From an uncultured Planctomycetia bacterium (lineage in GTDB: Bacteria; Omnitrophota; Gorgyraeia; 2-01-FULL-45-10; JAHFGN01): 64,000 bases of DNA. The position numbers were made by a program, and so were the translations under genes. The stretch's first letter is position 1. Each line of letters starts with the position of its first letter. Below are positions 1-64,000 of this stretch, piece after piece. The notes under the pieces were generated by a model. The model ran no database searches. It was not told the origin of the DNA and saw only the letters and a program-made list of their open reading frames with translations. Location of the stretch: the NCBI GenBank assembly GCA_964354545.1, contig CAYHAE010000003.1, positions 25,019 to 89,018 of the forward strand. Direction: 5' to 3'.

Positions 1-3000
1 AGTCCATCGCCGACCTCTTATTCCTCAACAGGATCCCTCCCGAAGAGCAGCGGTGGGCAGACGTGAACAGGGACGGCGTGATAGATTACTGGGACTATAA
101 CGTCCTCGAGAGGGCGTACGCGATACTCGCGGGCACCACAGGGGATATCAACAGCGACCTTACGGTAGATGCGCAGGATGCTGACATCATCAACGACCTC
201 GCTATCATGCTCAGAGAGGGCGATATCAACGGGGATGGCGTACGCGACGTGGAAGACGAGGTGATCATCTCGCGGGCGATGGGATCCATCCGCACGAAGG
301 TCCTCGCGAAAGACTATTCAACGAGGGGCGCCGCGTTCACCCAGGACGAGGATACTATGTACACAAAGTATACCGAGGGCGTCTCCGGCTATTCTCTCAC
401 CTATGCGTTCGACGTGCCTACCGCAGGATATTACGACATCGGCCTCACGGGAAGGGCCCAGGAGTTCATGACGATACCTGAGGGCGGGAACTACGAGGTC
501 GAGGTGAAGGTGGATGGGACGAGCAAGGGCACTATTACATTGCTCGGGAGCGCGTTCAAGTATAACGAGGGGCTCTTGAAGAAGGTCTATCTCACGAAGG
601 GACAGAAGCAGATAGAGTTTATCTGGAAGAACACCGGGTACGTGACCTACGACCTCGACAAGGACGGCATAAGGTATGAAAACCAAGACCATACGCACCT
701 CGATATCGAAGAGAAGATACCGACGACGTTCCAGGTGAAGGATGTCTTCGTCAAGACGTACACCTTCAATGAGGAAGCCGACCTCAATCGGGACAACAAA
801 GTGGACAGTGCTGACCTGGCTGAATTCAGGGAGGCCCAGGTCTTCTTCGCGCAGTTCCAGAGGTCGGACGTGAACGGCGACGGCATCGTCGATGCGAACG
901 ACGCGCTCGCCTTCCAGATGGCGCCTGCCACGTCGAACACCATCGCCAACGGAGTTCTCAGGGCGAACGGGTTCGAGTACTTCGTCCACTACAATAGAGA
1001 CAACCAAACCTACACGTTCACCGACAGCACATCCACGGACTATTCTACGACGCCTGAGTCCAACATCGTGAGACTCGCCGACGGGAAGCCCTACATTGTC
1101 CTCGGACCGGATCCGGACGGCGAGGTGCGGCTCGTCGAGAAGTTCGCCGCTGATGTGACGAACGACGGTGTCATCGACAGCGTGGATTGGACGGTCGTCG
1201 CGAACGGCGTGATAAATCCTGCGATACGAAAGGAAGCGATCGATTACGTATCGAAGGGCTCGGGGTGGGTCGTGGATGGGAGAGCGCTGAAGGGCTCGGG
1301 AGACCCGCTCGTCTACTCGTTCTACGTAAAGGGTACAGCCACCTATGAAGTAGGCCTCTTCGTGGCAAATGCGGCCGCCCAACTGCCGGAAGAAGGCCAC
1401 CTCTTCGCCTTCGACGTCTATGTCGACGGAGAAGTCGTGAAGTCAGGGACGATCGAGGTTGTGCCCAACATGACGTATGAGGAAGGTTTCATCACTTTAG
1501 CCCTCGGCGCGGGGACCCACGACATAAAGTTCGTCCTCACCAGCACGGGCGACCAAGTGAAGATACCGGAGGTCTTTGTGAGGACTGCCGACAGGAGAGG
1601 AGACCTCAATGGTGACCACTTCGTGGATCTTGCAGACCTCGATATCTTCAAATCCGAGAGGGCGATCTCTTCGTACGTCTATCCCGTAGACCTCGAGCTC
1701 GACGGTGGAGGGCACAAAGAGTACTACCTTGTAAGGAACTTTGACGGCACCTTTGTAATACGGGACAATGCACAAGTCTACCCTGTTGACTGGACCGGGA
1801 AGCTCGTGACGATCGATGGGAACAAGTATCTCGTGGCAGGCCCAGACGGGAACGGCATCACGAAGCTTGTGAAGTACAACTCCGCAGACCTCAACAGGGA
1901 CGGAGAGGTCGATTATCGCGATGCGAAGATCTTCAGGGACGCGTTCGTGAATCCGAAGACCCACCTCGTTAGCGGGTCGACGGTGCTCGCGAGGAACACT
2001 CCGTATGAATTCGACCTCGAGCTGCCCTACGAAGGCGAGTATTACGTCGGACTGTCCGCGAAGGGGCTCGGGTCGGGAGCAGGGAACTTCGATGTCGCGG
2101 TCTACGTCGACGGCGCGCTCTACGGGTATATCACGATACCGGTCAACAACCTCGATTACGTGGACCGGGCGCTGAAGCTCCGCCTCAATCAAGGCTCTCA
2201 CCACGTGCGGTTGATAAACATCTCCACGGGCAGCGCGGGCTCGATAGACGCGAGCGACATCTACCTGTCGTCAGTCGGCGCGGACTTGAATATCGACGGT
2301 ACTCTGAACGGGTCCGATGTCGAGCTCTTCAAGGCCCAGCTCGCCTCCACGAGCGCCACCCACCTCGTCACGCTGCAGGATGCGGCCCAGACCAAGTACT
2401 ACGTGCTCGATAACTTTGACGGCACATACACCCTCGTGGATCAGAACGGCGTGCCATACCAGAGCGATCCGGAGACGAACATGGTCCAGGTGGCAGACGG
2501 CAAGAAGTACAAGATCGTGAGGACGGCGCTCGGCGAGATACGCCTCGTCAATTACCTCCTCCAAGACGTCAACAAGGACGGGGTGGTGAACGAGGACGAC
2601 CTCGTCTACATCCGCACACACATGCAGTTCCAGTCAGTGAGGCACGACGCCTCTGACTTCGCGGCGAGGTCGAGCAGCGATTGGCAATACGCCGCGGACG
2701 CAGACGGGAAATCTCTCATCAATACGAGCGGCGCGGGATCCGTCGATTATACCTTCACTATCGAGAATGACGGGATCTACGACTTCGGCGCCCTTGCCAA
2801 GGATATCTCAGGCTTCGGCGACATCCCCGCGGATTACCACTTTACCTTCAGCGTGATAGTAGACCCGACAGGGGCAAATCTCACCGCCAAGGACATGAGG
2901 GTACCTTATAGCAACACGTCTATGGCGACGGCCACCACAAGGCTCCACCTCACTAAAGGCACGCACACGGTCAGTATACAGTGGACCAACAGGGATGAGT

Positions 3001-6000: not shown

Positions 6001-9000
6001 GTGTCGACGGCGCGAATAAGGACCTCTTCGTGAAGACGTATCCGGACGGCTCCTACCTTGTCTACAACGACCAGGCACAGCCGACGCGGAGCGTCGGGAA
6101 TATCGTTGAACTCTTCAGCAAGAAGTACATCATCCAGGAGAACGTCGATGGGACCGTTGGGATGAAGGAGAAGCCGACCGAGGATGTGAACGCGGACGGC
6201 ATCGTCGACGGCTCTGACCTCGATGCGTTGAAAGCGTCCATGGCGCTCTCGTCCATGAGGATCACGCCTGTCTACAGCACCGAGGTGGGGGTAGAGTGGA
6301 CTGACGTGAAGGTAGCGAGATCAGGATACTATTCGCTCGGCATGCGTGTCCAGGGGACGAGCGCAACTGCGCCATTCGATAAGTTCAATATCCTCGTCAA
6401 GGTCGACGGAGATGCGGAGGGGAGCTTATTAGTAGACTACGACTACCAGAAAGAGCAGTGCGGGGAGACGTTCATATATCTCTCGGCAGGGACGACCCAT
6501 ACCATAACCGTGAAGGTCAACAACAAGGCACCCGGCATTGAGGATGATGCGAAGATAGACGTAAAGAGCGTCTACCTGCGCGATGCCTCGATCGAACCGT
6601 ACGCGGACCTCAATGGCGATTCGATCGTGGACAGGGCCGACCTCATCGCGTGGCACAATGCGGTCCCGGACGAGGCGCTCGCATGGAAACTCTCCATGGA
6701 AGTGCTTGGAGTACCCAAGACTTACTACCTCAAGGCCTATGCTGACGGAACCTGGGCAGTGTACGACACTGCGCTTGTGTCCTTGCCAGTCAACGGTTCC
6801 CTCGTCACCATAGACACCAGAGACTATATAATCCTGAAGGATGCCCAAGGCGCGCCGATGCTCAAAGAGCACCTCATCCAGGACGTGAATTTCGACGGGG
6901 CGGTGAATGCGACAGACGCGGAGCTGATAAAAGCCGGATTGGGGACAAAGCTGGGTGACGCGGGCTTCAATACTAACCTCGACCTCACTAAGGACAACGA
7001 GGTCAACGGCGATGACCTCAAGAAGTTCCAGGAACTCGTCCCCTCATCGCAGGACATCCTGAAGACCACACTCACGAGGAGCGGACTCCTCGACGTGTAT
7101 CTCTTGAAGAATCCGGACGGCACGTATACTTTGACCGATGGATATGTCCTGTTCGGGCCCACCGATTCCAAGAACAGGGTTACTATGGACGGGAAGGTCT
7201 ATGAGGTGGTGGCAGCACAGGATGGGACGACCATAATCCAAGAGGTGATGAAGGCGGATCTGAACGGCGACAACTTAGTAAATGCGAGCGACGACCTCAT
7301 CATCAATAGCGCCATCGGTTCTTTCGCAATACCGGTTAAGGCGCCGAATCAATTCCACGCGAAGGACGGTTTCGCGGTCTCGGACAAGCCGTCGGAGACA
7401 TCGCTCCACTCCACCGGAGGGGTCGCCAATTACACCCTCGACTATGAATATAATATAGAAGGCACAGGGACTTACAATATAGGGTTGTACGCGAGGGGGA
7501 GAGTCCCGCGCGACTACGGAGCCTACCTCTTCGAGGTCTATATCGATGGACGGACACTGCCCTCAGGTGAATTCGAGGTCCGCGCCGACGACCTGGAATC
7601 TCAGAGAGGAATAGTCAAGATCCGCCTCACGAACGGCGAACACACGATACGGTTCAAGTGGAAGAACCCGAACGCCTCCGTCGAGATCACCGGGGTCATA
7701 GTGGAAGACGAGAAGTATGATGTGAGGGCGGACCTCAATAACGACGGCAGGGTAAACTCCGGCGACCTCGATATCTACACACCGCTTAGAAATGCGCAGA
7801 CGGTAGGCGCGACGTACACGACGGAGAGCGGCATCCACATATCCATAGGCGGGACCCTCTATTCTGTTACGGAAGCGGGGAACGAATTCACCTTTACAGA
7901 CCTGGCGAGCGTCCCTCGCACCACGGTCCAGAAGAAGATCGCCTTCGGGCCTAAGAGCTATATGGTGACGAAAGATGCGGCGAACAACATCGTATTATAC
8001 GAAACCCAAAATACCGGCAATGCGACGAGCGACAGAACGATCTTCATAAAAGGAAACGTCTATACCGTGACCGAGCCTACGCTCGGAAATTACACGTTCA
8101 GCGGTACGCCGCCCGCGACCGTCTCAGGCAGCGAGGTCATCGTGAGCGGCACCACCTATCTCATACAGGAAGTCGAGGAGACCATAGTCCTGAAGGACAA
8201 GCTTGACCCCGGGACCCAAGTAACCGGTACAAGGAATATCACCATCGATGGATATCTCTATACCGTTGGTGAGCCTACCGCGGGGAACTACACCCTTACG
8301 AGAGTGGGGACCACCGCGCCCATACCTACCGTCGACAATGCCGCGGGAACAGTGACGCTGGGCGCGGCCACATACGACATAGTCACGGTAGACCCTGAAC
8401 GGCACATCGAACTGCTGCGAAGGACCGATGCGGCGCGGGAGAAGGCCGGCAGGTTCATGAATGTCCAGGGCGAGCTCTACAGGATAGAAAAGGCGGGCGC
8501 GGAACACGTATTCTCGAAGATCACCGGCACCTACACCACCACGAGCATAAGCCAAGAAGTAGATATCGCAGGGGTCCGCTACAGCGTGTACGTGGATTCC
8601 AAAGGCTATGTGAGCGTGCGGGAGATGCGTGATGCCGGCACCGAGAGCGCGTACTCGGACATCGTGATCGACGGCATTGCTTATCGTGTGAGCGGTACGG
8701 TGGGCAACTATTCCCTCGCGAGCCTCAAATCAGGCGTCCCTGATCCAGTGGTGAACAATCCTGCCAAGACGGTGACCGTGGGCAGCATAGTCTACTCGAT
8801 AGTGCCATCGAGCATTGACGGGAAGATCATGCTCATCCCGACCATGACAAAGTACGACGCGTCTGGTGACCGCATCATGACGATCGACGGCATAGGGCAC
8901 CTTGTCTCCAAGACCGGCGAGGACTGGAGCCTCACAAAGCAGAGCACGGGCGGGCTGCCTGCCATTGTGGACAACGTGCAGGATATCGTCACCGTGGGCA

Positions 9001-54000: not shown

Positions 54001-57000
54001 GCAAGGTAGTCGCAAGGCAGGATATACAGCAGGGTACCGTGATGCGCATCGATACGACGACCCCGCCCGCCCCCGGTACTATCGCCGGTGGCGTACGCGC
54101 CGTTACCTATGACAGCGCCGGGAACATGCTAAAGGATTCGGTCGTGCAGCTCGGAAGGGGAGGACAGATACAGGAATACGCCGCGCAGAGGTACGAACAG
54201 GTTGAAGGCGAGATCATGGTCGGTGGACAACAGGTATCAGTGGGAATGAACGGCACGAAGGTCACCGAGACCGTCCAGGGCCGCATGGTCGAAGAAAATT
54301 ATATGGACGAATCGGGAAGGCTGGTCGCCACGCGCAACCTCGAGAACCAGAACGTAACGGTGTACACGGGCTACACCCCGGCAGGCAGCGGTGTCGAGTA
54401 CGCCACCGCCGTCACCTATGACGGGACCGGCAATGCGGTGAGGGACACTACCGTATACCGCGGAGCCGAAGGCCAGATCCGGGAATCCGTCTCCCAGACG
54501 TACGAACGCGTCTCGGGTCAGCAGACGGTCGGTTCAAGGACGGTCCAGTATGGAAACGATGCCACGCGGGTGGCGCAGTATGATGAAACCGGAAATAAGG
54601 TACAAGAGATGGTCCGCAGCGCCGACGGTAGATCGGCCGCCCTCTGTGATGCCCAGCAGACCACCACTGTCTACAGCACCTCGCCTACAGGAGAAGTGAC
54701 GGCGACAACGTACAGCAGGGCAGGGACAGTGCTCGAGACCGCCACCGGCTACTACGCCAACAATGCGTTCTATATGGCTTCTGACGAAGAGAATAATAAG
54801 TATATCCAACTCAAATCCGACAGCATTGAACATATGAGCACGCCCATGGCAGAGGTACAGGGCGCCTACAACGAGCAGTCACAGCAGTTCGAGGTCGCCG
54901 GCGCCCTCCAGACCCAGGAGAGCGGCGTCTTTGGCGAGGTTGCGCTCGGTTCCCAAACCTTTGCCGTGGAGAACGGCACACGGGCCACATACTATGACAC
55001 GCGCGGAAGGGAAATTGAGGTGCTCGCCGGACAGGACGGACGACCTCTCGCCGCACGCAATGCCGACGAAGGGACCGTGACCGTCTACGATGGCTACGCC
55101 CCGATAGGGAGCGCCGCGACCGAAAGGGTGAACGTCGTCACCTATGGAAGCACCGGCGACGTGCTCGAGAGCACGGTGGGTTACCGTTCAGACGGCAAGT
55201 TCTATGTGCCTGTTTCCGGAGAGAATGAACAGGGGCGTCTCTACTACCAGTATAATTCCAACGATGTGAATGCGCCTGAGGCCCTGGTCCAAGGCGGATA
55301 CAGTGAAACGATCGGAGAGTTCGTCGTAGATACGCCGGTCGAAGAGTATCAGTACGCCGTCACGGGCACAAAGACATTAGGGACGGTGGGGGATGTCACG
55401 CTCCAAAATGCGAGAAGGATCGTACAATATGACCCAGAAGGATACCAGGACGGAGAGCTTTACGTTGATTCCGCCGAAAGGCCGATCGCTGAATGGGATG
55501 TTGAGAACGATGCCGTGACCAGATACGAGTATACCCCTGTCGATGCGATGGGAACCGCACGGGCGAATACCGTCACCTATGACGGGTCAGGAAACGTGAT
55601 GCGGGATTCCATCGGCTACTTTGACCCGACAACGGGCAGCGTCCAGGAAGCCAGGGCCGTACAGTACCAGCGCGGTGTCTCGGGTACGGTAACGGTCGGG
55701 CGGCAGGAGCTCTCATTGTCAAACGGTACCATGATGACTGTACAGAGAGGCGAGGATCAGATCGGGAAGACCTACGCCGATTCGTACGGCAGGACCGTTG
55801 CCGCGGAGGACCTCACGAGGGGCACCTACACCCTGTTCGAGGAGTACACGCCGACAGGCGCCCCGGGCACCGAAGCGTTCAGAGCGACGACGTATAATAA
55901 CACGGGAGTGAAGGCAGGGAGCTTCGAAGGGTACCGCACCAGCGACAACACCATCTATGCGCGTGTCGAAGGAGAAGAGGATACATACCTCACATATCAA
56001 TCCGGCATGATGGACGCGCCCACCGCTAAGGTCCGGGGAGCGTTCAACGAGGAGACTCAAGAATTCGAGGTCTCCCAGACGGCCCAGATGTACCAGGATA
56101 GTTACACAGGCGCCGAGGCGGTAGGCCAGCAGGAAATCGTGTTTACAGACGCCGCACGATTCGTACGCTACGACCAATCCGGCAGCGCGGACGAGGCGAT
56201 CTACTATAACAAGCAAAGCGGGACGCCAATGGCGGCACGCAATTACGAAAATGGCACCATGACCGTATTTGACGGATTTACTCCCGCGGGAAGCGGCGCC
56301 GGCGTCGCGACGTTCAACGGAATGACCTATGATAATGAGGGGAATACGGCCGACAGCTTCAGCGGCTACTATGCGAACGGGAACCTCTACAGGCCCGTTG
56401 AGGGCAGGGAGGAAGAGGGCCTCTACTACCAGTATCGGTCCGACGATGTGTACAATCCGACAGCCATGGTACAAGGCGGGTTCGATCCTTCGACAGGAGA
56501 CTTTGGCGCCTCTATGCGCGAGATGTATGAATATGAGCTGGAAGGTACGCAGGATGTAGGATTCGGCGCAGGCGCATATCCCGGCGGCGACGCGTATCCC
56601 GGAGGCGGCGCGTATCCTGGAGGCGGCGCATATCCCGGCGGCGAGTATTCTGGCGGCGGCGCGTATCCCGGAGGCGGCGCGTATCCCGGAGGCGGCGCAT
56701 ATCCCGGCGTCGGCGGCGGTTCTTCGAGGCGGACAAGCGCGGCATTGCCTGCGCCGAACGTTACCCTATTCGATGAGAGCAAGCGCGCCGATACCGACGG
56801 CGACGGGCTTACCGACTACATGGAGACGACCATTTATAATACAGACCCTGAGAAGGCGGATACGGACGGCGATGGATTCTCGGACGGCGAAGAGATAGTG
56901 CACTACGTCCCGGATCCCGTGACGGGGCTCATGACCCTCGGAGGCAGGCGTTATACGGTACAGGTGAACGACAGGATAAACAGGGCGAACGCGGATATTG

Positions 57001-60000
57001 ACCGCTCCGGCGCGATAGACGTTGCGGACTGGAAGGCGCTCAAGGACGCGATCGCGCAACAGCCCACGAGGGACATCGACGGAGATTCTTACGTCACGTC
57101 GTTGGACGTCGAGCTCATGAACAGCATCCTCGACGGCATACTCCGAGGCCTCATCATTCAGCCCGGGGACTACAGGAAGCTCGATATCAACGGTGACGGC
57201 GCAGTGGACTCAAAGGATTGGACCGACATAGAGACCGCCGTCACCCAGCTCATCATCGGCGAGAGGAACCTGGTGGGCGGTCCGGAGATCGCCAGAGAGG
57301 ACCTCACGAGGGCGATCGAGGTACGAAGGTTCGTCGCGCTGCTCGGCGATGTGGACGAAGACGGAGACGTGGACACCGGTGACATCACGGAGGCGATCGC
57401 GAAATACGATACCGATGCGGATTGGCTCATCACCGACGCGGACAGGCAGAACGTGTTTGACATCGTTTCCACCATCTACAAATACGACGTCAACGGAGAC
57501 CTGAAGATCACCGCCGACGATTTAGGCGCGGTAGATGTGGTGAAGGAATACTATGACCTTGGGATGAGCGTGAGCTCGCAGGAATACGCGATCGCGGACA
57601 TCATACCGGATGAGGTCGTCGATCAGGCGGACCTCGCGAAGTATGACAGGCTCACGCGGGAGCTCGACGTGAACCACGATGGAAGGGTGGATGGCACCGA
57701 CATCGATATGATCGGCAAGGCGATCGAAGGGAACCGGCTCGCGCAGAGCGTATTCAGCCCGATGCTTGTAGCGCGGTTCGACCTCGCGGACTTCCTGCCG
57801 CAGAATATCACGAGGCACATGGAGGCCATGGAGAGCGTGCTCAAGACCATGGCGGACATCGACGGCGACGGGAAGGTGACGGCGTACGACAGCGAGGTCT
57901 ATTGGAAGCTGTACGACGGGTACAAGCGCTCCACGCTCCTGCCGCAGGCTGAGGTGGTGAGGTTGAAGGACCTCGTTGCCGCGCGCGGCGTTCCTTCGCT
58001 TGCCTCGATATCCTTGGCGGATATCGATAGTGTCGGGGGAGTGACGCTCGGGGACAGAGACCGCCTGAGAGCGATGCTTGAAACGGTTCAGAGGGCGGAC
58101 CTGGACTTCTCAGGGACCCTGGACCTGAACGATCTCATTCGGTTCTACGATATCGTCGAGTCTCAAGGGCTCGGCGTCACGAAGGCGGACACGCAGAACC
58201 TCGTCCTCTACGATATCAGCGGCCCCGAGGGAATCCCCGACGGCAGGATCGACGACAAGGACCTCATCGACCTCACCTATGCGATAAGGAATTACCTGAA
58301 ATACGACATATACGGACCGACAGGTTCGCCCGACGGCAAGGTCGATGCGTGGGATATCGAGCTTATGGACAAGGCCCTGGACTATCAGCGCCTGAAGTTC
58401 ATCCTGGACGACCAGGATGTCATGAAGGTCCTCTTCACTGTCATTGAGGATAAGAATGAGGACGGCAAGAAAGACGGGTCCGATATCGATACGGACGATA
58501 ATAAGGAGATCACCATCGATGAGCTCTACGCCGCGGTCGAGCCTGCGATCCAGGCGGACATCATAGGCACCATGAAGGGCCTCGCGAAGTGGACCGTGGA
58601 CGTGAACGAGGACGGCGCATTCGATTACAAAGACGTCCTTGCGGTGATGGGTTCTCTAGAGGTGATGAAGGCAGGCTACAGCCTCGAGCAGATCACGCAG
58701 GTCGACATCAACTTCGACGGAGCGATCAACAAGTTCGACGCATTCATCTATGAAGATACGTCAAAGGGAGGAGGCTATGACATCAACAGGGATCTGAAGC
58801 TCGATGCCGCAGACCTCGCGCGTTTGGACACGTATTACCGGCACGGATATTATACTTCGTGGGTCATACGCGCCGATGTGAACGAGGACGGCATGATAGA
58901 TGCGGCGGACGCGGTCGATATCCAGCACGGAATGGACTGGCATAAGGACCTCACGAGAGACGGCGAGGCCGGCCTGTCAGACCTGCCTAAACTCGATAGT
59001 ATCATCGAGGCGGCCGGCTACGGGTATGGCGCGAGAGACGTGCTGCGGGGCGACCTCGATAAGGACAGCTGGCTCGGAGAAAAGGACAAGGATATCTTGA
59101 AGGACGAGATAGAGAAGATCAGGAAGTATGACCTTAACGGCGACGGCAGGGTGAACCCGCTGGACCTCGCGTTTGCGTACGATGTGGTGGGGGTGCATCC
59201 CATCGACCTGCTCACGAACTATGCGAATGACCTGCAGGCGCTCTTTACCCAGATCTCGGGCGTTCAGTCGAGGTCGGAGGCGGACGTCCTCGTGAACCTC
59301 GCGAAAGGCACCCTCGACAGCGCCACGGATATGCACGCGACGATCACCGGGATCGCGTACTACATGCCGAACAGGACCCTCGCCGCAGACCTCGCGCTGA
59401 GTGCGGGAACGGAGCTCGGCAGGGCCCAGGATCTCTATTCCGATATCGTGGGGGTCGCGGATTCCAAACAGGATATCCCTCCCACGGATATAGAGGTGGT
59501 ACGGGGCCACAACGACTCGGTCACTGACCTCGCGGCCGCTATTTCCCGCGCCCCCTCATACGCAGTGGCGTCACGGCTCCTCGGAGTCGCGAATTCCATC
59601 CTGGACCTCGCTGTCCAAAAAGAAGCCGACATCCAGGCCTCCGGGACCGAAGCGGACAAGGAGGAAGCGGCGCGCCTCGTCGAGAGCATCCGGGAACTGA
59701 TCGCCCAGGCCGGCGTGGCCGCAGGGGATATCGATGCGGCAGAGACCGCGCTCAAGGGCATTGCCGATATAGGGGATTCCACACAAGAGGTGATGAACTC
59801 CCTCGCAAAGATGAGCGCGGTGACGGACGACCCGGCCATTGCGGACGCCGTGGCGCAGACGGCAGCGACACAGTTAAAAGAGGCGGAGGACCTATTCTGG
59901 AACGCCGAGGGCATCCTCGCGGACAATCCTCGCAATGAGCTCGCGAAGAAGACAGTCGCGTCGCTCGGTGCGATGGTGACCCAGCTGAAGGCGGCGCTCA

Positions 60001-63000
60001 TAGGTATCGAGGAGAAGGCATTCTCAGCCGCGGCAATCATAGACAGCGGCGCGGGAGCCCTCACGGAACTCGGCAGGGATGCCGACGCGGTCGCGCTCTC
60101 TATCGCGTACGTCGCGCTTGTCCTTGCGCTCAACGATGCGAAGAGGTTCGCGAACTCAACCTACGCGGCCGCGCTCGCGAGAGCCCCCGACTCAACAGAG
60201 CTCATCGCATCCCTCGAGGCCCTTCTCGTCGACGGAAGAAATGACAGGGAATGGGCAGCAGCGCTCCTCTCTACCCCAGAGTTCATCGCACGAAACCTCA
60301 CAGACGAAGATTTCATAAGGGCCGCGTTCATGACCATACTCTCGCGAAATGCCTCACAGAACGAGGTCAACGGCTATCTCATCAAGTTAGCGACGAGCAC
60401 CATTACGAGAGACGGCATCGTCACCGAGCTCGTGAGTTCCACCGAGCCCTACACTCCCGTTGCAACCACCCTCGACGCGCACAAGAACAGGTTCTACGAG
60501 CTGGACATAGAGGTAGGTTCCGTTGTGGACGCCTTTGCGGCAGACCTTTCATCGATGAGCCTCTTCGCGACCGCCGTGCGTGATGTCGCAGGAAAAGTGA
60601 AAGATAAGGCGAGCCGTACGCTCGTCCTGTTCGAGAACCTCACGCACGAACATCCGTACAATTCGGCCCTCGCCGATAACTATGACATCGCCGAATCCAT
60701 TGTCGATGTCCTCCAGTCCTCGCTCGGAGAGCTCAACGTGCTCACAAAGACGATGGGCGCGGTGGGGCGTACGTCGGTTGCGCACGACGCGTACGGCGAG
60801 TTGGCGCTCGCCTACAAAGACGTTATAGAAAGGACGCGCGGGATGGTGAAAGGCCTGGATGACGAGGCGAAGCTCCTGAACACAATACCGCAGTTCCGCA
60901 TCCTCGATGTGTCGAACCTCGTGTCGGAGTCGGCGCTCGACGAACTGTGGGCGCTCTCGAGACAGACGGCCATCGATCAGCTGGCGTCCGTGGACACGGC
61001 GAAGGCGGCTGCGGACACATCGGCAGCCTTCTCCAGCGAGGTGACGGCTATTAGGGATGGCGCGGAGAGCATCGCAACGCATGGGGATACCCTAAGGATC
61101 GCGGCGGAGAGGCTGAACCAGACGGCGAGGCAGATGGTAGGGGCCCCCGAATCGTCGAAAAATAGCGCCCAGGCGATATCGTACGTCGACGCGGTACATG
61201 ATATTCAGAACGCCGTGCAGTATTACAGGGCCTCGCTCGAAACGCTCAGCGCCCAGTATGCGGACGACGTAATGATCGCGCAGAACCTCTCGGCCGCGAC
61301 CGCGCTCGTCGGCGAAATCGGAACAAGCGTACAGGACATAGAGACCGGTTCGACGACTCTCATCGATGCCGAGTCGCTCGCAGATGAACTGCTCACCCTG
61401 GCCAAGAAGGACAGGGAGTTCATGGAGAGATCGCTGGAACTGGTGAGGCGTTCCGAAGAAGAAGATGATCTCGTAACGCTCTCGTACGGGATGGGCGTCA
61501 TACTCGAGAGGGTTAAGGACAACGCGATCCGCATCTCTCTCCTCGCGGCGAGCCATCCGAACGATGCCCTTATCAAGGTAGGATACGATGTCATCTCCAT
61601 GATACGGAAGAACGCGGATGCCGCATACGGAGAGGCCTCGAGCAAGCTCGCCTCGGTGATGGTCGCGAAGACAAAAGGCGTATGGTTGAGGGACAGGGCG
61701 GCCGCGGCGGTGAACGATGTACAGGGGGTCTCCACGTATGCGTCAACGGTAACAGACGTCCAGACATTGGCGACGCTGCAGGAGATCGCGTCCGCCATGC
61801 TCGAGCCCATTAAGGAAGGCAAGACGGCGCTCGAAGGGCTCTCCAGCGAAAATCCCGCTGATGCGGCCATTACAGCCTCACTCGCAGAGACAGAGGGCTT
61901 CCTCGAAAGCGCACAAGGGTTCATCGATGCGATCGGGAGCAGGCTCGAGACCCTCGCGACGGCCGCGACACAAGGCGAGAGCCTTGTCGATTCGATGAGG
62001 CTGCAGCTGGAGCTCATGAAGAAGGCGTTCGACATCGCGACCCTGGAGCAAGATCCGAAGGCCGCGAAGCTCCTGTACGATCTGAGCCTCTCTTCCCAGG
62101 CAGAGTTCGAACGGGTTCGAACCCTTGCGACCGGATATGGGGTGAACGCCGACATCATCTCGAAATTGGACACCGAGGTCGCCGATTACATGGATAGGCT
62201 GGAGAAGAGGGCCGCACGGGCGAGCCTCGAAGGGATAGCGGCGCTTACGCGTGACTACAAGATCTTTGCGAACGTCTTAAAGGCAGAGGTCGACGTGGCA
62301 AGTCCTTCGGACGCAAAAGGCCTCATTGAGCTTGCGCGCGGCGTGCTTGAGAAGACGGACGTGCTCGTCGCGAGCGCGAAGGCCTATGCGGCACGTTATA
62401 CTACCGACTCCGCGCTGCAAAACCTGCTCACCTCTGCCCTTAATAACAGGACGTCCATCGCCCAGGGCATCGTCGCGATGAACCAGAAAGTCCTCACGAT
62501 AGAAGGCGTGGAGACGAACTGCGTGAATCTCGCCGATGTCGCGAAGGTCAACCTGCGGACGGCAGAGTCGATGAAGTTCTTTGCCCAGGGGGCCTACGCC
62601 CAGCAGGACCTCGTGAAGATCGCTGCCGCTCGGGAGATCGCACAACGGGCTCTCCTCAAGGCCAACGAGGCTGCCGTGATCGCCACTCAGCTCGCCACTG
62701 ATAATTTCGAGAATATCGCGATGGATACCCAGAGGCAGTTGGCTACGGCATATAAGAATTCGATAAGAGACAGCGAGCTCTTTGCGATAGAGAGCCTCAG
62801 GGATGTCCTTGCCCAGCAGATCGCCGATGAGAGAGGGGTCGGGTGGACAAAAGAAGACGTCATAAGGGAAGCGGTTGAGTCATACGAAGGCTTGAGGGAG
62901 GACTACGCCGACATTCTTGATGCGAAGGTAGCGGCGATAGCCTCTGAGGGCAATCTCGAGTATGCAAAAGAAGAGAGGAACTCCGGAGAGATCGCGAATG

Positions 63001-64000
63001 AGCTGATCTCGGGCCTCTCGGAAGAGTCCAGGATATCCCTCACCGAGGCGCAGAGGACAGCCCTCGGGTCGTCTCTTGGCGCGCTCTCCGATTCGTTCGA
63101 GCGCCTCGAAGGATTCCAGACGGACGGCGCGACGCTCGTGGCGATCGCACAGTCCCTCACATTTGCGATGGGGAAGGCGGCGGACTGGACCGCGTCAACA
63201 AAAGATAAGACCGCGGGAGTGGGCATCTTTGGGGCGCAAGAGGACCTTGACAAGGAGATAGTGGGACTGTCCGAGACCATGACGTGGATCCTGGGACAGA
63301 AGTCATCGGGGGCCCTCACCGCGAATTCAGAGGAGCTGGCGACCGTGAAGCAGGATGCCTCAGGCGTAATGGATACGGCCTCGGCCGATATAAGGCGCGC
63401 CGATGCATTGCCCGGATACAACGATTCTCCCGCAGGACAGGCCTATGCGATAAGGAGCCTTGCCGCAAACGACTTCGCGAGCGCAGGCTTCCTCACCGAT
63501 CCGAACGGGCTCAAGGCAATGAATGTCCTCGCCAAGAAAGTGGAGGAGGCTGCCGCCGCGAAAGTCTATGACGCGCTCACGGCGATGCGTTCGGATACTT
63601 CCAGCCGCCTCGCACGGTACAATGTCGATGTCATGAGGGTGTCAAAAGATATCATCAAGACGGCGTCGATCGAGGTCGACGAAACGGTCGCGCAGAGCGT
63701 GGGGGCAAAAGACCACGGGCAGGAGCTTGCGGACCTCGCACACGCGACGAGCGAATTGACGCAGGCGATGAGCGATGCGGTCGCGGCGTCGCCCACCTCC
63801 GCAGACGCGCCGCTCTACATGAAGATAGCGGATGGGGCGTGCCGCGCGAGCCAGAAGGCCGGGATCCGGGCGAGGACCCTTGCCCAGGACCATCCTCTCG
63901 ATGCGGCCATCCAGGCCTCGAGCACCTCTGCCCAGGAAGACGCGAAGCTCGCCGCGGACCATCGCAAGGAAGCGCAGCGTATACTCGGGATCACCTCGAC
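1..64000 (+). CDS. Internal fragment of a single giant ORF (frame 3; complete codons 3..63998, 21,332 codons; 5' and 3' ends outside the window). Multidomain Ca-binding, repeat-rich protein that looks like a surface adhesin or fibre.
   Basis: Seen directly: I translated the window end to end in the frame starting at nt 3 and met no stop codon. Spot checks at nt 867, 5133, 10488, 16566, 21825, 35658, 41274 and 44625 all keep the same phase and encode DxNxDGxVD loops. All 31 plus-strand ORFs in the supplied track start at positions congruent to 1 or 2 mod 3, and none is in frame 3 despite frequent ATG there, which fits a frame with no stop anywhere. Strong GC3 codon bias in this frame only. Minus-strand ORFs have antisense-type composition (R/L/V/H-rich, no motifs). 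Confidence 0.93.
313..7750 (+). repeat. Nine tandem cassettes of about 250-300 aa. Each is [beta-sandwich CBM/lectin-like module ending GxHx(I/V)xFxWxN, then V(Y/F)(L/V)RD] -> dockerin-like Ca loop -> [xFDGT(Y/F)T ... GxxYxI beta-hairpin module] -> dockerin-like loop.
   Basis: Beta-sandwich modules at approx. 313-665, 1249-1600, 1969-2300, 2625-3085, 3433-3880, 4725-5150, 5505-5925, 6262-6625 and 7350-7750. Shared hallmarks are Y(T/S)F...G(x)Y(x)(V/I)GL(x)A ... F(x)V(x)VDG ... G(T/S/E)H(T/D)(V/I)xFxWxN ... V(Y/F)LRD. Examples: GTHTVSIQWTN at nt 2950-2985, GTHTVTFSWKN at 3748-3781, GEHTIRFKWKN at 7630-7665. Hairpin modules include KYYVLDNFDGTYTLVDQNG...KKYKIVRTALGEIRL at 2390-2560. Confidence 0.75.
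867..902 (+). other. Representative dockerin/EF-hand-like Ca-binding loop (DVNGDGIVDAND). More than 100 such 12-residue loops occur across the ORF.
   Basis: gac gtg aac ggc gac ggc atc gtc gat gcg aac gac in frame. Consensus D-x-(N/D)-x-D-G-x-(V/I)-(D/N)-x-x-D followed by L/A-rich helix-like segments (e.g. DALAFQ), as in dockerin type I repeats. Confidence 0.7.
7750..9950 (+). repeat. Array of about 18 degenerate 36-40-aa beta-hairpin repeats (consensus (V/I)x(V/L)(D/G)GxxYx(V/I)xxxxxGxYx(F/L)...).
   Basis: Translated units include GTLYSVTEAGNEFTFTD, KGNVYTVTEPTLGNYTFSG, IDGYLYTVGEPTAGNYTLTRVG, TLGAATYDIVTVDPERHIELL, VQGELYRIEKAGAEHVFSKI, IDGIAYRVSGTVGNYSLASL, INGKKYQVTRLDSGIMIELS and LDGTTYKITRRDLGYEFVKDG. 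Periodicity is about 110-120 nt. Confidence 0.7.
10737..11150 (+). other. Beta-sandwich CBM/lectin-like module, copy 10, followed by dockerin-like loop.
   Basis: ...LTYAFTTDTPGDYYVGLSAKSY...FQYVVAVYIDGVYRTT...LEKGVHTVRFEFKNLSD...VFLNKTGFSLTKFDVNEDGRIGVDDAD. Confidence 0.65.
11150..11700 (+). other. Cluster of at least 7 dockerin/EF-hand-like Ca loops with short helical linkers.
   Basis: DVNEDGRIGVDDAD, NVNGLSGVDIDDVD, DLNGDGKISNEDAD, HDNNNDGVLNSS, DFNDDGKVDILDRA, DLDGDRKITRGDLD. Confidence 0.65.
11700..15000 (+). repeat. Second, longer array of about 28 of the 36-40-aa beta-hairpin repeats.
   Basis: Units such as KVKLNGITYTIAEVADKLSLSR, VIDGVTFEIVEAAGALSSLKE, VSVDGLEYFYKANPDGTYTLARG, VINGYTYDITKSADSCHIVLSA, ICVNGTEYEVKNNGAGSYTVTRG, TVDDKAYSIAETTEGIELTLI, LAVDGVTYAIKDNPREKGKIDLVE, VRLNGRLYTVTRDPDTGDYFVSDG, IHIDGMTFAVTDDEVTKGYKLVQ, VTIGTKDYAISRNSATNVITLTE. 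Confidence 0.7.
15760..17560 (+). other. Dense dockerin/EF-hand-like Ca-loop array (about 20 loops) with an embedded beta-sandwich module (copy 11, about 16665-17025: ...FNFDVKAAEFAALSFDVFVDGIKSG...SGEHTIMFVMRCPS...).
   Basis: DVNGDGFTNELDL, DLNVDGKMDAKDV, DINQDGIVDYKDA, DVKGDGVVDDKDV, DVNKDGVVDGEDY, DVNGDGIYSYDDG, DINWDGAVDDRDL, DVTRNGVVDQRDL, DVNRDGFIDGKDE, DLTGDGMIDARDL. Confidence 0.7.
17738..18275 (+). other. Concanavalin-A-like lectin/glucanase-fold domain (LamG / DUF1080-like jelly roll), single copy.
   Basis: LNWTSDGTQWMVKDGVYSQTASG...DFSVEADVRVDGG...GAGIVFRMKDAGNYYEAYLNSATRSLEFRKVVDGGAPIVMKSVKVGIAGDRWYRLGVKARSRFFEFTIDGKKVFDFISTTFGTGGVALKVGPSTRASFDNVRFS. The pattern W..G.W...G / G.G.+FR..D..NYY / L.F.K...G / W+.L.V.A.G..F.F.IDG..V / G.V.L / F.NV.F matches that fold family. 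Assigned by eye, not by HMM. Confidence 0.5.
18280..22450 (+). other. About 4.2 kb dominated by dockerin/EF-hand-like Ca loops (about 40) separated by short amphipathic helical linkers. Contains a non-repeat insert at about 20560-21050.
   Basis: DLDGDSDIDAWDY, DVDGNGNADVND, DLNGDGLVNEDDY, DINKDGRVDWNDY, DVNGDDTIDSKDI, DVNGDGRKDLSD, DVNRDTKVDQDDV, DFDKDGKLSAQDT, DVDRNGIIDAADA, DANGDGWVDANEK, DFNGDGDINGKDI, DVNGDGKRDDTD, DLNKDGFVDKKDE, DFNSDGYVDKKDL, DINGDGIVNGFDL, DFDEDGTIEASDL. Confidence 0.7.
22560..24400 (+). repeat. Beta-hairpin repeat array (about 15 units) with one dockerin-like loop at about 23680-23760.
   Basis: IGETLYYITEEAVTKRVNLS, VKVGSIVYLVIYDSLSHKISL, IKLGEQQYEVLDNQDGTFTLRDG, LVGDELYRVIKNENTGEITLI, IALDGVLYKADYDAGEGFFFNDG, IEIKNRRYKIAMDPDTRVIQLTE, VELDGVRYDVYQDPATGEITLKE, IKVQGVYYEVEDIGGGVYEFRRNG, VTLDGITYTIQGPANEVSLTG. 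Confidence 0.65.
24400..25500 (+). repeat. Two copies (about 24400-24720 and about 25180-25500) of a roughly 105-aa module of unknown family, separated by beta-hairpin repeats.
   Basis: AHKYAVAFTVDGSDVVIGALSGNVTTDETHGKVMLSNIPIGPAGTTARKIYRTDAGGSTFKFVATIDDNTTTALLDNEPDSGLG versus THAYSIVFTVDGNDVVSGIPTNTVTTDATHGKVLLSNIPIGPTGTTARTIYRTGANGATFKFLASIDDNVTTTYEDSAADATLG. Nucleotide identity about 80% over 24568-24685 versus 25341-25458. Confidence 0.7.
27850..28420 (+). repeat. Tyr/Gly/Asp-rich low-complexity segment (about 190 aa).
   Basis: YDLNGDYEGNYYEDWPFGTDTGYYGNYGYQSGNYTYT...YADYDYTDDRTDAVYTYDYSTGEYVTSSSGYQMGSFGMGGDALAGSKYF...WGYSGGGFSGGSPMGMGMGEDS. Confidence 0.7.
31443..31895 (+). other. Beta-sandwich CBM/lectin-like module, copy 12, plus dockerin-like loop.
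   Basis: MNYKFTIAQDGEYDVGLFAKTYEN...YIFQVWVDGLSRGTFSL...LDAGEHDIKISWDLP...VKDVFIGAPEIDKADLNGDLKVDGADL. Confidence 0.6.
31950..33480 (+). repeat. Beta-hairpin repeat array (about 13 units).
   Basis: VMIDGTTYNVYTFERARDV, FSLGGTVYYIVKIDDHMYGAYELRNG, IEVAGTRYLVTANPDGSFNFDD, MQVGGKFYGVEKVFTGRGTQFTYRF, VILDGRNYILSVDGNGAITLQE, INIGGTEYLIIDNGDGTFTFGS, VQINGQVYYIFTNRTTGTFSLIKE, ITLNSIMYDITIEGAGLVLTE, VRLDDIVYEISKAGERIMLAKK. Confidence 0.65.
33488..36050 (+). repeat. Segment A, copy 1 of 3 (about 2.56 kb). Order is a hairpin pair (VKLDGVQYDVTTVAEKYVFSDGINPSVTSPDNLTVTLKGHDYKIELVSDKIVLSE), then a T/S/G/Y-rich beta region with GTGLSDIKL and TYTLDDGAGHVYTAQVGTPVVINDIAYDVFGSGDNN motifs, then a dockerin pair with a ...YYATRRTDGIYRFFDLVNSPVDANATNSRV module.
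   Basis: Directly alignable with 47717-49560 and 49694-51370. Example nt: gtgacctcgcccgataatctgacggtgacgctcaagggacacgactataagatagagctcgtg (about 33595-33660) versus gtgacctcgcccgataacctgacggtgaacctcaacgggcacgactataatatagagctcgtg (about 47820-47880). Confidence 0.8.
36160..36565 (+). other. Beta-sandwich CBM/lectin-like module, copy 13.
   Basis: YLDYIFTTTSAGNFDIGLDVKAAG...YNIEVYVDGQSIGTLWI...LSAGSHTVRFEWHNLDQ...MVLRSGNYDANADINQDLRVDELD. Confidence 0.6.
37450..37840 (+). other. Beta-sandwich CBM/lectin-like module, copy 14.
   Basis: FLTYEFDVNGAGNYDLGFTARARNG...YAIEVFIDGVSAGVINV...IQRGIHRIKFKWANPVD...VFVRDTQYDAVFDLNKDKKIDYLDLD. Confidence 0.6.
38285..39180 (+). other. Beta-sandwich module, copy 15, enlarged by an insertion of about 170 aa between the N-terminal Y.F...GDYxVGLSA strands and the C-terminal GWHSVVYEWLN strand.
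   Basis: N-terminal part: MMYMEGFGQALWAEYKFYVEKEGDYQVGLSAQNL. Insert: WKSWDNVNNL...YWNRETDQQGVWSEDRSDWFMINADNEMHTYTLDF...IEIESISIHMTRDSGPVKVWGVNPNATEP. C-terminal part: YAKVTWDNEEYRRGAAEVHLTPGWHSVVYEWLNDYGIESRISVKDVFIAQVNEKADFNKDLWIDETD. Confidence 0.5.
39200..41280 (+). repeat. Beta-hairpin repeat array (about 18 units).
   Basis: VDLGGKYYNMAKTADGKAFELTTFKDG, VRINDADFVVILDRTTGGVKLGQ, LTVQGGRYEVLEFPDSTFTFTK, MVNGIEYEILQHLDGRISLISRE, ILIDGEKYALRTVDEKLTIMKD, VDIGGTVYEMTKETDGSVTLTFG, IDIAGTAYDVTVSGNVYTFSDG, VELSGVTYEIIPQADGGILLRRR, ITLDGTVYYATPIDNPQPPPAKLYTFSDG, VQINDLVYEVSLDRKGNVMLRHLE, VTLKGETYQMKKIGTRGVYAF. Confidence 0.65.
41540..42190 (+). repeat. Tandem duplication of about 324 nt (2 copies of an acidic module of about 108 aa: DxDGDxIADxIExxxYGDL ... 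GIATDSDGDxIADIVEKLTYGxLT ... DxDGDGIDDTLExxxWGST ... SYDSDHDGVADxVExLLY).
   Basis: ggcatcgcgaccgactcggacggcgataccatcgctgacatcgtcgaaaagctcacctatggggacctcacc at about 41634 versus ggcatcgcgaccgattcggacggagacgggatagcggacatcgtcgaaaaactcacctatggaaacctgacc at about 41958. Confidence 0.8.
42230..42870 (+). other. Dockerin/EF-hand-like Ca-loop cluster (about 7 loops) with helical linkers.
   Basis: DVNKDGRVDETDR, DVTKDGTVDAKDA, DTNGDGVLNMQDV, DINKDGLVNQQDI, DLTGDGYATATDV. Confidence 0.65.
42870..44580 (+). repeat. Beta-hairpin repeat array (about 14 units).
   Basis: VRLDDMLYSVTKDSHNRYVFYDG, VEIENVIYDVFELEYGRVKLIEQ, LKLGTKTYSVTPIGEAFIFQEEG, IKLEGVEYDIIRDRIHDTYEIRA, ITINGEAFTAHINPALGRITLVK, VAIKGTSYDVTKDLFTGGVTLIQ, IRVNHATYEVDYNLDGTYTFTRD, IEFNGEPYEVVRNDDGTFTFIG. 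Confidence 0.65.
44625..45055 (+). repeat. Thrombospondin type-3-like Ca-binding repeats (about 7 units of DxDxDGxSDxxExxxGTDPxxxDS).
   Basis: [50 protein letters not shown]...[47 protein letters not shown]...[38 protein letters not shown]. Confidence 0.75.
45115..47700 (+). repeat. YD (RHS-type) repeat block 1. Contains a roughly 1.18-kb tandem internal duplication (45387-46563 versus 46564-about 47700, about 65-70% aa identity).
   Basis: IAQYDERGRMAGTLYANGAGDPIAMWNVEEEMLTVY; IGTTYDEAGNVVRRTEGSY; IVEYDEYQNRIREVYARQDGKPLTMVDY. Copy 1 YYQYQPGNYASLSEPDAMVRGSYSTSTGSFNPSRTVESY...ITQYDE... aligns with copy 2 YYRYRYQSGSIESLEEPDAVLQGSYNRVLGRFSVSKMVEEY...ITQYDELGRRAGMFYADKEGDPLVTWDVEKKALTVY. Confidence 0.7.
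47717..49560 (+). repeat. Segment A, copy 2 of 3 (about 1.84 kb), in tandem with copy 3 and interrupting the YD array.
   Basis: VVRVEDTIYDVTTVNGKYVFSNGVDTPVTSPDNLTVNLNGHDYNIELVADQLVLSE...GTGLSDIGL...TYTLDDGAGHVYSARAGTPLTINHW...DISGSGFTKVGLETT...ILNTDLNGDHAVTQADEDIVMAALTGAYTTAADLDHDDNIDWDDVDIFRSRRDSTANWTKLNVNDVDYYAMQRNNIYRFFDRVRAPVDANAANTRVVL. Confidence 0.8.
49694..51370 (+). repeat. Segment A, copy 3 of 3 (about 1.68 kb).
   Basis: IYDVAIVGGKYVFSNGVDASVTSPDNLIVTLKGHDYRIEQAGSELVLSE...GTGLFNIGL...AKAGTPLTITYGTYSITYDVFGSGLNKVGLQGM...LISDLDNSGSITGADEGIITAALTGLYTTAADLDQDGSVEWDDVDIFRRERDRTEYWTKINLNAKDYYVMQRNGIYRFFDRVRAPVDANADNTLVTL. Nt 49400-49500 versus 51240-51340 are about 85% identical. Confidence 0.8.
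51380..56560 (+). repeat. YD (RHS-type) repeat block 2 (about 5.2 kb, dozens of YD units). No RHS core (PxxxxDPxGL) or C-terminal toxin domain follows.
   Basis: TERYDNFGRLTETLYTDARGVLRGV; IGTTYDSAGNEAQKVDGYY; ITEYDGEGHKTGEEVVAQDRRPLAVWDAEQNVTALY; ITYYDTNGFERGTVYVDEAERPIVAIDAQKNAVTMY; AATYDTSGNEVRNSIGYY; AIDYDNFGNPIGETFMGPDGKVVARQD; AVTYDSAGNMLKDSVV; AQYDETGNKVQEMVRSADGRSAALCD; ATYYDTRGREIEVLAGQDGRPLAARN; VTYDGSGNVMRDSIGYF; VRYDQSGSADEAIYYNKQSGTPMAARN. Confidence 0.7.
56566..56715 (+). repeat. In-frame tandem microsatellite, about 8 x 18 nt (gcgtatcccggaggcggc), encoding (AYPGGG)n.
   Basis: GAGAYPGGDAYPGGGAYPGGGAYPGGEYSGGGAYPGGGAYPGGGAYPGVGGGSS. The reverse complement yields the minus-strand track ORF 56426..56782 (PGYAPPPGYAPPP...). 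Confidence 0.9.
56770..56900 (+). repeat. Second, short thrombospondin type-3-like cluster (2 units).
   Basis: [46 protein letters not shown]. Confidence 0.7.
56980..59200 (+). other. C-proximal dockerin/EF-hand-like Ca-loop array (about 25 loops) with helical linkers.
   Basis: DIDRSGAIDVADW, DIDGDSYVTSLDV, DINGDGAVDSKDW, DVDEDGDVDTGDI, DVNGDLKITADDL, DVNHDGRVDGTDI, DIDGDGKVTAYDS, DLDFSGTLDLNDL, DVNEDGAFDYKDV, DINFDGAINKFDA, DINRDLKLDAADL, DVNEDGMIDAADA, DLNGDGRVNPLDL. Confidence 0.7.
59200..64000 (+). other. Ala/Leu/Glu-rich, largely non-repetitive region predicted to be alpha-helical (about 1,600 aa). Contrasts with the beta-rich, Asp/Gly/Thr/Tyr-rich remainder. Continues past the window end.
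   Basis: For example ...AKKTVASLGAMVTQLKAALIGIEEKAFSAAAIIDSGAGALTELGRDADAVALSIAYVALVLALNDAKRF... and ...LETLATAATQGESLVDSMRLQLELMKKAFDIATLEQDPKAAKLLYDLSLSSQAEFERVRTLATG.... The Ca-loop motif disappears, and Gly/Tyr/Thr content is low. Confidence 0.55.

Follow-up and report, generated by a model that had tools for sequence, protein, structure and literature searches.

What kind of gene runs through 64 kb of bacterial DNA without meeting a stop codon? The question is posed by a 64,000-nucleotide (nt) stretch of contig CAYHAE010000003.1 (assembly GCA_964354545.1, forward-strand positions 25,019 to 89,018), the whole of which is referred to below as the window. The window proved to lie inside a single intact protein-coding gene, of which it covers at least 21,332 codons. 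We also consider it likely that this gene belongs to the family of Dockerin-type giant proteins known from Candidatus Omnitrophota, the surface- or adhesion-type interpretation of that family included.

One open frame across the window

Stop codons were counted in all six frames of the 64-kb window. Plus-strand frame 3 (nt 3-63998) has none in 21,332 codons, and the remaining five frames hold 1032, 673, 811, 1140, and 174. Base composition would predict 804 stops in frame 3 and position-specific composition 520, so that the probability of finding zero is below 1e-228. GC at codon positions 1, 2, and 3 is 55.6, 40.1, and 76.1%, a pattern limited to plus frame 3, while overall GC content (57%) and GC skew are uniform across the window. 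The initial annotation of this DNA had proposed a stop-free frame 3 of more than 21,300 codons, with a codon bias confined to that frame; the scan for in-frame stops (0 of 21,332) and the third-position GC of 76.1%, found solely there, bear this out. It had also noted that the gene was missing from the mechanical list of open reading frames (ORFs), which is correct: no plus-strand ORF appears there because ORFs running off both ends go unlisted. The gene is recorded as follows:

3..63998, plus strand: internal part of the giant coding sequence, both ends open (zero stops, third-position GC, collinear Omnitrophota giant-gene fragments)

Sigma-70-like promoter and terminator-like matches were no more frequent than in shuffled sequence over the 40 kb that the scan covered (nt 1-20000 and 44001-64000), in agreement with the earlier remark that no promoter or terminator is present, and neither tRNAs nor Rfam matches were found in the window.

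Sixteen minus-strand ORFs reach at least 250 amino acids (aa). Fifteen of these lie in the codon-complement frame, which stays open through the rarity of TTA, CTA, and TCA among the sense codons (174 of 21,332); the sixteenth (61223-62173) is in a different minus frame. Because of their complement-frame position and the lack of any Pfam match in the four longest, the antisense ORFs (up to 627 aa) were rejected as genes and regarded as shadow ORFs.

Modules of the product and the Dockerin type

The window encodes 21,332 aa, or 2.344 MDa, with a pI of 4.47. Its composition is rich in D, T, G, and V, and there are 22 cysteines (0.1%). A domain search of the translation had been suggested as a check in the initial annotation; run as a Pfam profile search over five tiles, it found Dockerin_1, EF-hand_7, PF06439, ILEI, TSP3_bac, and DUF4214. 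A re-scan of ten unannotated sub-regions gave no further Pfam domain, and there was no Pfam match in the window to catalytic, peptidase, cohesin, SecA, or RHS families.

The first 2,600 aa are made of about nine repeats of a Ca loop, a carbohydrate-binding module (CBM), a second Ca loop, and a hairpin unit. Hairpin and dockerin arrays then alternate until the TSP3 repeats, YD-like array I, and two paralogous blocks, and the order ends with YD-like array II, a GGAYPG x8 linker, further TSP3 repeats, the last dockerin array, and a helical region of 1,580 aa. The features and the evidence for each are given below; labels beginning with P denote relatives of the product, HMM stands for hidden Markov model, and TRF for Tandem Repeats Finder.

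3..7802, plus strand: ladder of about nine units, each Ca loop/dockerin half, CBM35-like module, Ca loop, beta-hairpin unit (order map, Dockerin_1)
7818..9935, plus strand: beta-hairpin array A, ~65-aa units (iterated HMM)
11673..15725, plus strand: beta-hairpin array B, ~20 units (iterated HMM; collinear with P0017 and P0053)
17745..18254, plus strand: DUF1080 / 3-keto-disaccharide hydrolase domain with ConA-like fold, aa ~5915-6084 (PF06439 E 4.6e-7, above gathering score)
18270..22502, plus strand: longest dockerin/EF-hand Ca-loop array (Dockerin_1 E 5.8e-51, EF-hand_7, loop density)
22542..26171, plus strand: beta-hairpin array C, broken by two ~100-130-aa modules (iterated HMM, 53% identical pair)
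31458..31754, plus strand: CBM35-like module (iterated HMM)
35640..39107, plus strand: dockerin and CBM35-like modules at aa 12074, 12506, and, split, 12774/12966 (iterated HMM; 38.5% identical to P0039)
39768..40040, plus strand: ILEI domain, aa ~13256-13346 (Pfam PF15711 E 1.5e-17; conserved in P0039)
41556..42188, plus strand: two tandem 108-aa D-rich Ca-type repeats, a 324-nt tandem repeat (TRF and repeat search)
44610..45062, plus strand: six bacterial TSP3 repeats, aa ~14870-15020 (Pfam PF18884 E 9e-26, motif positions)
45132..47729, plus strand: YD-like beta-hairpin array I, 7 units of ~100-140 aa (aa 15044-15909, 866 aa)
47709..51377, plus strand: two paralogous ~600-aa blocks of hairpins and dockerin (self-comparison, repeat families D5, D7, D13, D15, and D17)
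51378..56561, plus strand: YD-like beta-hairpin array II, 14 units (aa 17126-18853, 1,728 aa)
56565..56717, plus strand: GGAYPG x8 low-complexity linker, an 18-nt tandem repeat (TRF, repeat search)
56775..56912, plus strand: two TSP3 repeats, aa ~18925-18970 (PF18884 E 2.2e-6, motifs)
56970..59252, plus strand: C-terminal dockerin/EF-hand array (Dockerin_1 E 5.7e-25; weakly collinear with P0026)
59250..63998, plus strand: Ala/Leu-rich predicted helical region, 1,580 aa, aa 19750-21332 (A 17.3%, L 10.2%; top helix propensity)
60084..60140, plus strand: most hydrophobic segment of the whole product and candidate membrane anchor, aa 20028-20046 (19-residue Kyte-Doolittle score 1.61)
60255..60446, plus strand: DUF4214 domain, aa 20085-20148 (Pfam PF13946 E 1.3e-9)

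Two types of giant protein have been described in Omnitrophota, the Archaeovorins and the rarer Dockerin type, with proteins above 10,000 aa termed large and those of at least 30,000 aa termed giant (West-Roberts et al. 2023, bioRxiv 10.1101/2023.11.21.568195). The Dockerin type is defined by dockerin/EF-hand and TSP3 repeats, DUF1080, ILEI, a repeated CBM35-like barrel set between dockerin-like helices in a ladder-like structure, an RHS-like antiparallel beta helix, and an N-terminal bulk without transmembrane (TM) segments, with C-terminal TM regions and then SecA-like domains (West-Roberts et al. 2023). Discoidin and GNAT domains are frequent in it without being universal, a C39 peptidase-like domain occurs in one member, and it is proposed that the type attaches to glycans on host or prey surfaces and processes them (West-Roberts et al. 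2023). A second survey reported a 17-protein cluster combining dockerin and TSP3 (PF00404 and PF18884) among 916 long Omnitrophota proteins (Nielsen & Lui 2026, bioRxiv 10.64898/2026.06.07.730766). With Omnitrophota ORFs of 85,804 aa and of up to 147,155 aa now reported (the latter by Nielsen & Lui 2026), the earlier placing of this gene among the largest known in prokaryotes is dated.

The window shows the traits of the Dockerin type: an ORF of at least 21,332 codons, dockerin/EF-hand and TSP3 repeats providing many Ca sites, DUF1080, ILEI, and the order Ca loop, CBM, Ca loop, hairpin. It thus carries every class-defining feature that is testable within it. Further likenesses are the CBM35-like modules flanked by dockerin-like elements and the nearest sequence relatives, of which all named ones come from Omnitrophota metagenome-assembled genomes (MAGs) and several are collinear. 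The all-beta arrays may resemble the RHS-like helix of the type, and aa 1-20,000 contain no TM-grade segment. Together, these domains and relatives support the earlier suggestion of a giant modular Ca-binding protein of the surface type known from uncultivated bacteria. There are also differences. Discoidin, GNAT, C39, and SecA domains are absent within the window and may lie beyond it, where SecA and C39 would be expected; the 64 kb run without gap or frameshift, whereas the public relatives are fragmented and none is more than ~49% identical; and the 1,580-aa C-terminal helical region has no detectable homologue. The Archaeovorin type (Velamenicoccus archaeovorus) likewise consists of giant ORFs of the same phylum that encode membrane-associated surface proteins thought to act in host or prey interaction. 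However, the hallmarks of Archaeovorins are HEAT repeats, numerous TM helices, and a wealth of enzymes (glycosyl transferases and hydrolases, methyltransferases, NUDIX), with dockerins lacking; the window has none of these hallmarks, and dockerins abound in it.

A relaxed EF/dockerin loop pattern occurs 113 times in the product, compared with 3 in shuffles. Pfam Dockerin_1 (PF00404), which describes a type I dockerin module with two Ca-binding F-hand segments, scored above its gathering threshold in all five tiles, and its matches cover ~50 of the 57 profile positions. The TSP3 repeats named in the initial annotation are confirmed by PF18884, with eight motifs in total. Its "hundreds of Ca loops" stand as to kind, since dockerin/EF-hand loops are present, but not as to number, which comes to ~113 loops plus the eight TSP3 repeats. 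The carbohydrate-binding-like beta-sandwiches that it described were recovered by iterated HMM search as a CBM35-like beta module with an 85-aa core in 15 copies, and the profile of this module matches CBM35/CBM6 domains of glycoside hydrolases in the PDB (5x7o at E 2.8e-6; also 5x7g, 2vzp, and 2cdp). Nine of the cores, at aa 131, 435, 666, 913, 1182, 1604, 1863, 2101, and 2478, belong to the ladder, a region 29-40% identical to P0001-P0004, P0007, and P0008. In the region at 35640..39107, the last CBM is split by a nested domain, an insert of ~160 aa (aa ~12808-12966; 38322-38900) that is conserved in the orthologue P0039 and has a sub-threshold Pfam match to Shr-like_HID (E 0.01).

Cellulosomal type I dockerins have the same duplicated Ca-binding F-hand loops (PF00404), and the match of the beta-sandwiches to CBM35/CBM6 is a further likeness to such systems. 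Unlike them, the window has no cohesin or catalytic carbohydrate-active enzyme, its dockerin halves are split around modules, and more than 100 loops sit on one polypeptide. The product might nevertheless be a polyprotein or self-assembling scaffold, that is, a precursor that is cleaved or whose dockerins plug into cohesin partners in a cellulosome-like complex. Dockerin_1 matches well above the gathering score speak for this, as do the C39 peptidase-like domains of one Dockerin-type member (West-Roberts et al. 2023) and the hairpin arrays, which are predicted to be beads on flexible linkers. We regard it as unlikely, given that no peptidase or cohesin domain was found in the window and that loops stand singly on both sides of CBM and hairpin modules, an arrangement also known from the published split-dockerin/CBM35 fold. 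This placement of single dockerin-like loops on either side of the modules suggests a structural role. As part of a surface protein, the dockerin-like halves would mainly serve as Ca2+ clamps, bracketing the CBM and hairpin modules and making them stiffer, and not as cohesin-binding plugs.

The ConA-like domain of the initial annotation proved to be PF06439/DUF1080. Together with ILEI, this 3-keto-disaccharide hydrolase family raises the alternative of a catalytic machine, in which enzymatic digestion of host or prey surface polymers is the main role and the binding modules target the enzymes. Glycan processing has been argued for the class (West-Roberts et al. 2023), and relatives that extend further upstream carry several DUF1080/LamG modules, one of them annotated as a "family 16 glycoside hydrolase." Yet no catalytic domain of the glycoside hydrolase, lyase, peptidase, or acetyltransferase kind was recognised anywhere in the 21,332 aa, DUF1080 and ILEI cover less than 1.5% of the window, and DUF1080 is a lectin-fold domain whose catalytic activity here would be putative. 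A mainly catalytic role is therefore quite improbable.

The hairpin-repeat arrays noted at the outset were confirmed as a ~65-aa double-hairpin unit in 82 copies, which cover 5,244 aa (iterated HMM). An AlphaFold model of 360 aa of hairpin array predicts that the units are small all-beta modules (pLDDT 70-87) joined by low-confidence linkers in a beads-on-string arrangement, and a Foldseek search with this model returned generic beta-propeller/meander matches alone, with TM-scores of at most 0.19. The two modules that break array C (aa ~8130-8250 and ~8400-8500; 24390-25502) are 53% identical and share the motif IPIGPxGTTARxIYRT...FKF..TIDDN. The second matches the phage family phrog_19622, annotated as esterase/lipase, at E 1.7e-6, and has no Pfam or PDB sequence match.

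The two YD-like arrays contain 21 units of 100-140 aa. The predicted structure of three units (397 aa) is a confident beta-hairpin meander (pLDDT 84.8, pTM 0.71) with weak similarity to Rhs shells. The initial annotation had called these YD repeats, which goes too far. Neither Pfam RHS_repeat nor the NCBIfam/TIGRFAM YD-repeat matches, the PDB gave no sequence match to Rhs, Tc, or teneurin proteins, and the Rhs core motif PxxxxDPxGL occurs zero times in the window product, so that the arrays are YD-like only. A word-indexed homologue search with the YD-like region as query also gave no match. A function in toxin delivery, with the arrays as an Rhs/Tc-like cocoon that encloses and delivers a toxin, would fit the weak structural similarity but is scarcely credible: in contrast to RHS/YD shells (Rhs effectors of type VI secretion systems, Tc toxin BC, teneurins), the window has no profile match, autoprotease motif, or toxin domain, and its YD-like unit is longer (~100-140 aa). 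What follows array II is the GGAYPG x8 linker, which joins it to the TSP3 repeats and dockerins downstream.

Hairpins, a dockerin, and a Trp-rich segment make up each of three ~600-aa paralogous blocks (33483-35700, 47703-49530, and 49641-51370), whose protein-level identity is 40-53%. Two of the three stand between the two YD-like arrays, and the pair listed at 47709..51377 has its further paralogue at aa ~11165-11900.

Relatives, gene extent, and assembly

Relatives of the start of the product were sought with a HMMER scan of window aa 1-1200 against 1.84 billion representative proteins. The scan gave 52 matches, 11 of them at E <=1e-30, with the best 33% identical; all named matches are partial proteins from Candidatus Omnitrophota/Omnitrophica MAGs. 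None of the 52 is the window product itself, and peptide-pattern scans of genome_contigs, metagenome_contigs, and viral_contigs with its last 5,000 aa gave no match. With the best-conserved 2,350-aa stretch as the query, an alignment-based scan found two true relatives in GTDB representative genomes and none in JGI metagenome contigs. Identity to the retrieved relatives is 29-49%. Collinear relatives account for much of the length: P0001, P0002, P0003, P0004, P0007, and P0008 follow window aa 1 to ~1,350, P0017 follows aa 2054-4344, P0028 aa 3254-3853, and P0053 (7,837 aa) aa 3187-9363. P0039 (PIU40335.1) is 45% identical over aa 12602-14951, and differs substantially from the window only in lacking its 2 x 108-aa repeat.

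The first residues of the window align in the middle of its relatives. P0008, P0015, P0013, P0002, P0007, and P0003 have 800-3,500 aa upstream of the residue matching window aa 1, which consist of dockerin arrays and several DUF1080/LamG modules. The longest relative is the scaffold JADGBR010000015.1 (GCA_015231405.1; 69,855 nt, GC 49.5%), which carries P0008 and is covered from one end to the other by five ORFs, which measure 3,026, 3,985, 942, 1,013, and 14,271 aa. What separates them is a frameshift close to locus position 9092 and three N-gaps, which are 10, 10, and 91 N long. The scaffold therefore represents a further giant gene of this kind, and at least 6,500 aa of it lie upstream of the point equivalent to the window start. 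It follows that the window gene begins upstream of the window, as initially claimed, with 800 to more than 6,500 further residues in the relatives, and the lack of any stop means that it runs on downstream. If collinear with these relatives, the gene would have a total length of at least ~28,000 codons. The two relatives' contigs that were examined held more of the same giant gene, with neither termini nor neighbouring genes.

Two details of the public record concern this scaffold. Over 1-31046 of JADGBR010000015.1, five proteins marked "partial" are annotated where there is evidently one giant gene, the cuts coinciding with the N-gaps and the frameshift. For MBF0216762.1, the residue annotated as its Met start is encoded by an internal GTG, and the open frame continues through it.

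A stop-free frame of this length might also arise from a chimeric or repeat-expanded join of shorter genes. The public MAG relatives are all fragmentary, the sole long one is a scaffold with N-gaps and a frameshift, and repeats are known to break up assemblies of these genes; for this reason, the three published Dockerin-type proteins that reach 30,000 aa, CAILPI010000004_73 among them, are all judged likely to be incomplete (West-Roberts et al. 2023). Against such a misassembly, composition and GC skew are even, there are zero stops in 21,332 codons, and the domain order matches independent assemblies over thousands of residues. TRF found only two tandem DNA repeats, a 324-nt unit x1.9 (79% matches) and an 18-nt unit x8, and the dispersed DNA repeats are all at most ~80% identical and 300 nt long. 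Repeat misassembly is unlikely in the absence of any DNA repeat above ~80% identity. The internal protein repeats are 25-55% identical, which marks them as old duplications and not as collapsed or expanded copies. Taken together, we consider a misassembled ORF very improbable.

The most similar DNA repeat in the window is the 324-nt pair at 41556-42188, whose two copies are 79% identical and encode "DSDGDxIADIVE" units; it is the window's most recent duplication. Its 2 x 108-aa product is missing from the otherwise collinear orthologue P0039 and found in P0001, so repeat number differs among lineages.

Helical end and proposed role

The alpha-helical end described in the initial annotation was confirmed, and it has the highest helix propensity in the protein. 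Apart from DUF4214, this tail had no homologue in a word-filtered search of 5.8 billion clustered proteins, and none of the 54 collected relatives matched it, not even P0026 through its own equivalent helical tail. Within it, aa 20028-20046, just before DUF4214, aligns with the most hydrophobic stretch of P0026 (Kyte-Doolittle 1.83). In both proteins, the hydrophobic segment lies ~300 aa past the last dockerin array and is followed by K/R, and as a shared feature it is a candidate membrane anchor. Across aa 1-20,000, Kyte-Doolittle scores stay below the TM threshold throughout. If the segment is an anchor, the following 1,300 or more aa may be cytoplasmic.

We propose that nearly the whole window product would be extracellular, a placement suggested by its acidic, Cys-poor, and TM-free composition. 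It would form a fibre stiffened by Ca2+ at ~120 sites and capable of multipoint glycan binding through its 15 CBM35-like and two lectin-type domains, with the small hairpin modules and beta-meander arrays as putative spacers or shafts. The likely link to the cell's own membrane would be the C-terminal helical region, in which the hydrophobic segment is conserved; the candidate anchors are the segment at aa 20028-20046, the TM and SecA-like parts placed in the literature downstream of the window, or both. The initial annotation had suggested an extracellular, Ca-stiffened adhesion or capture fibre; this agrees with the published interpretation of the class, and we keep it as a proposal.

A comparable design is found in giant Ca2+-dependent repeat adhesins that are exported via type I systems, such as the RTX adhesins LapA, SiiE, and the Marinomonas ice-binding adhesin. 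Like these, the window product is an acidic, Cys-poor, MDa-scale protein in which a repetitive extension rigidified by Ca2+ presents sugar-binding modules. In contrast to them, it belongs to another phylum, and the proposed route of anchoring or secretion is through C-terminal TM and SecA-like parts. The RTX nonapeptide GGxGxDxUx has zero occurrences in the window, which also gave no Pfam match to HemolysinCabind or Big (BIg-type) families.

Several observations weigh against the assignment to the Dockerin type as a surface adhesin. Adhesion or host capture, localisation, and anchoring are read from composition, domain families, and the published view of the class. Both termini are beyond the window, hence the signal peptide, the anchor, and the SecA-like domains would be outside view, and Discoidin (F5_F8_type_C) and GNAT have no Pfam match within it. 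The candidate TM segment is marginal, with a Kyte-Doolittle score of 1.61 and a 15-residue hydrophobic core. There is no marker gene in the window, so the assignment to Omnitrophota rests on homology at 29-49% identity, and the relative scaffold JADGBR010000015.1 has a lower GC (49.5%) than the window (57%). At the structural level, the global confidence of the hairpin-array model is low (pTM 0.28), and structure comparisons found no convincing solved counterpart for the YD-like and hairpin folds.

Omnitrophota giant genes are thought to mediate the physical contact of ultra-small bacteria with hosts or prey, and to our knowledge no biochemical study has been made of any. Members of the Dockerin-type class are rare, and assemblies nearly always fragment them, so an uninterrupted segment of 21,332 codons offers a clean template for defining the CBM35-like ladder, 65-aa hairpin, and YD-like repeat families, for picking recombinant fragments, and for checking fragmented relatives. 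As such, the window gene is a good uninterrupted exemplar that leaves existing knowledge of the class unchanged. A bolder combined reading, rather unlikely in our view, is that this is the first gap-free Dockerin-type stretch of more than 64 kb and also contains undescribed parts, namely the 82-fold hairpin domain, hollow YD-like tubules, and an orphan helical module. If so, the two YD-like arrays could close into hollow antiparallel beta tubules, and the conserved hydrophobic segment of the helical module could be a new kind of membrane anchor or secretion device for MDa-size proteins.

Finally, aa ~9280-9500 (27840-28502) form a Tyr/Gly/Asp-rich stretch of low complexity with no family match, the flanks of which are conserved in P0053.

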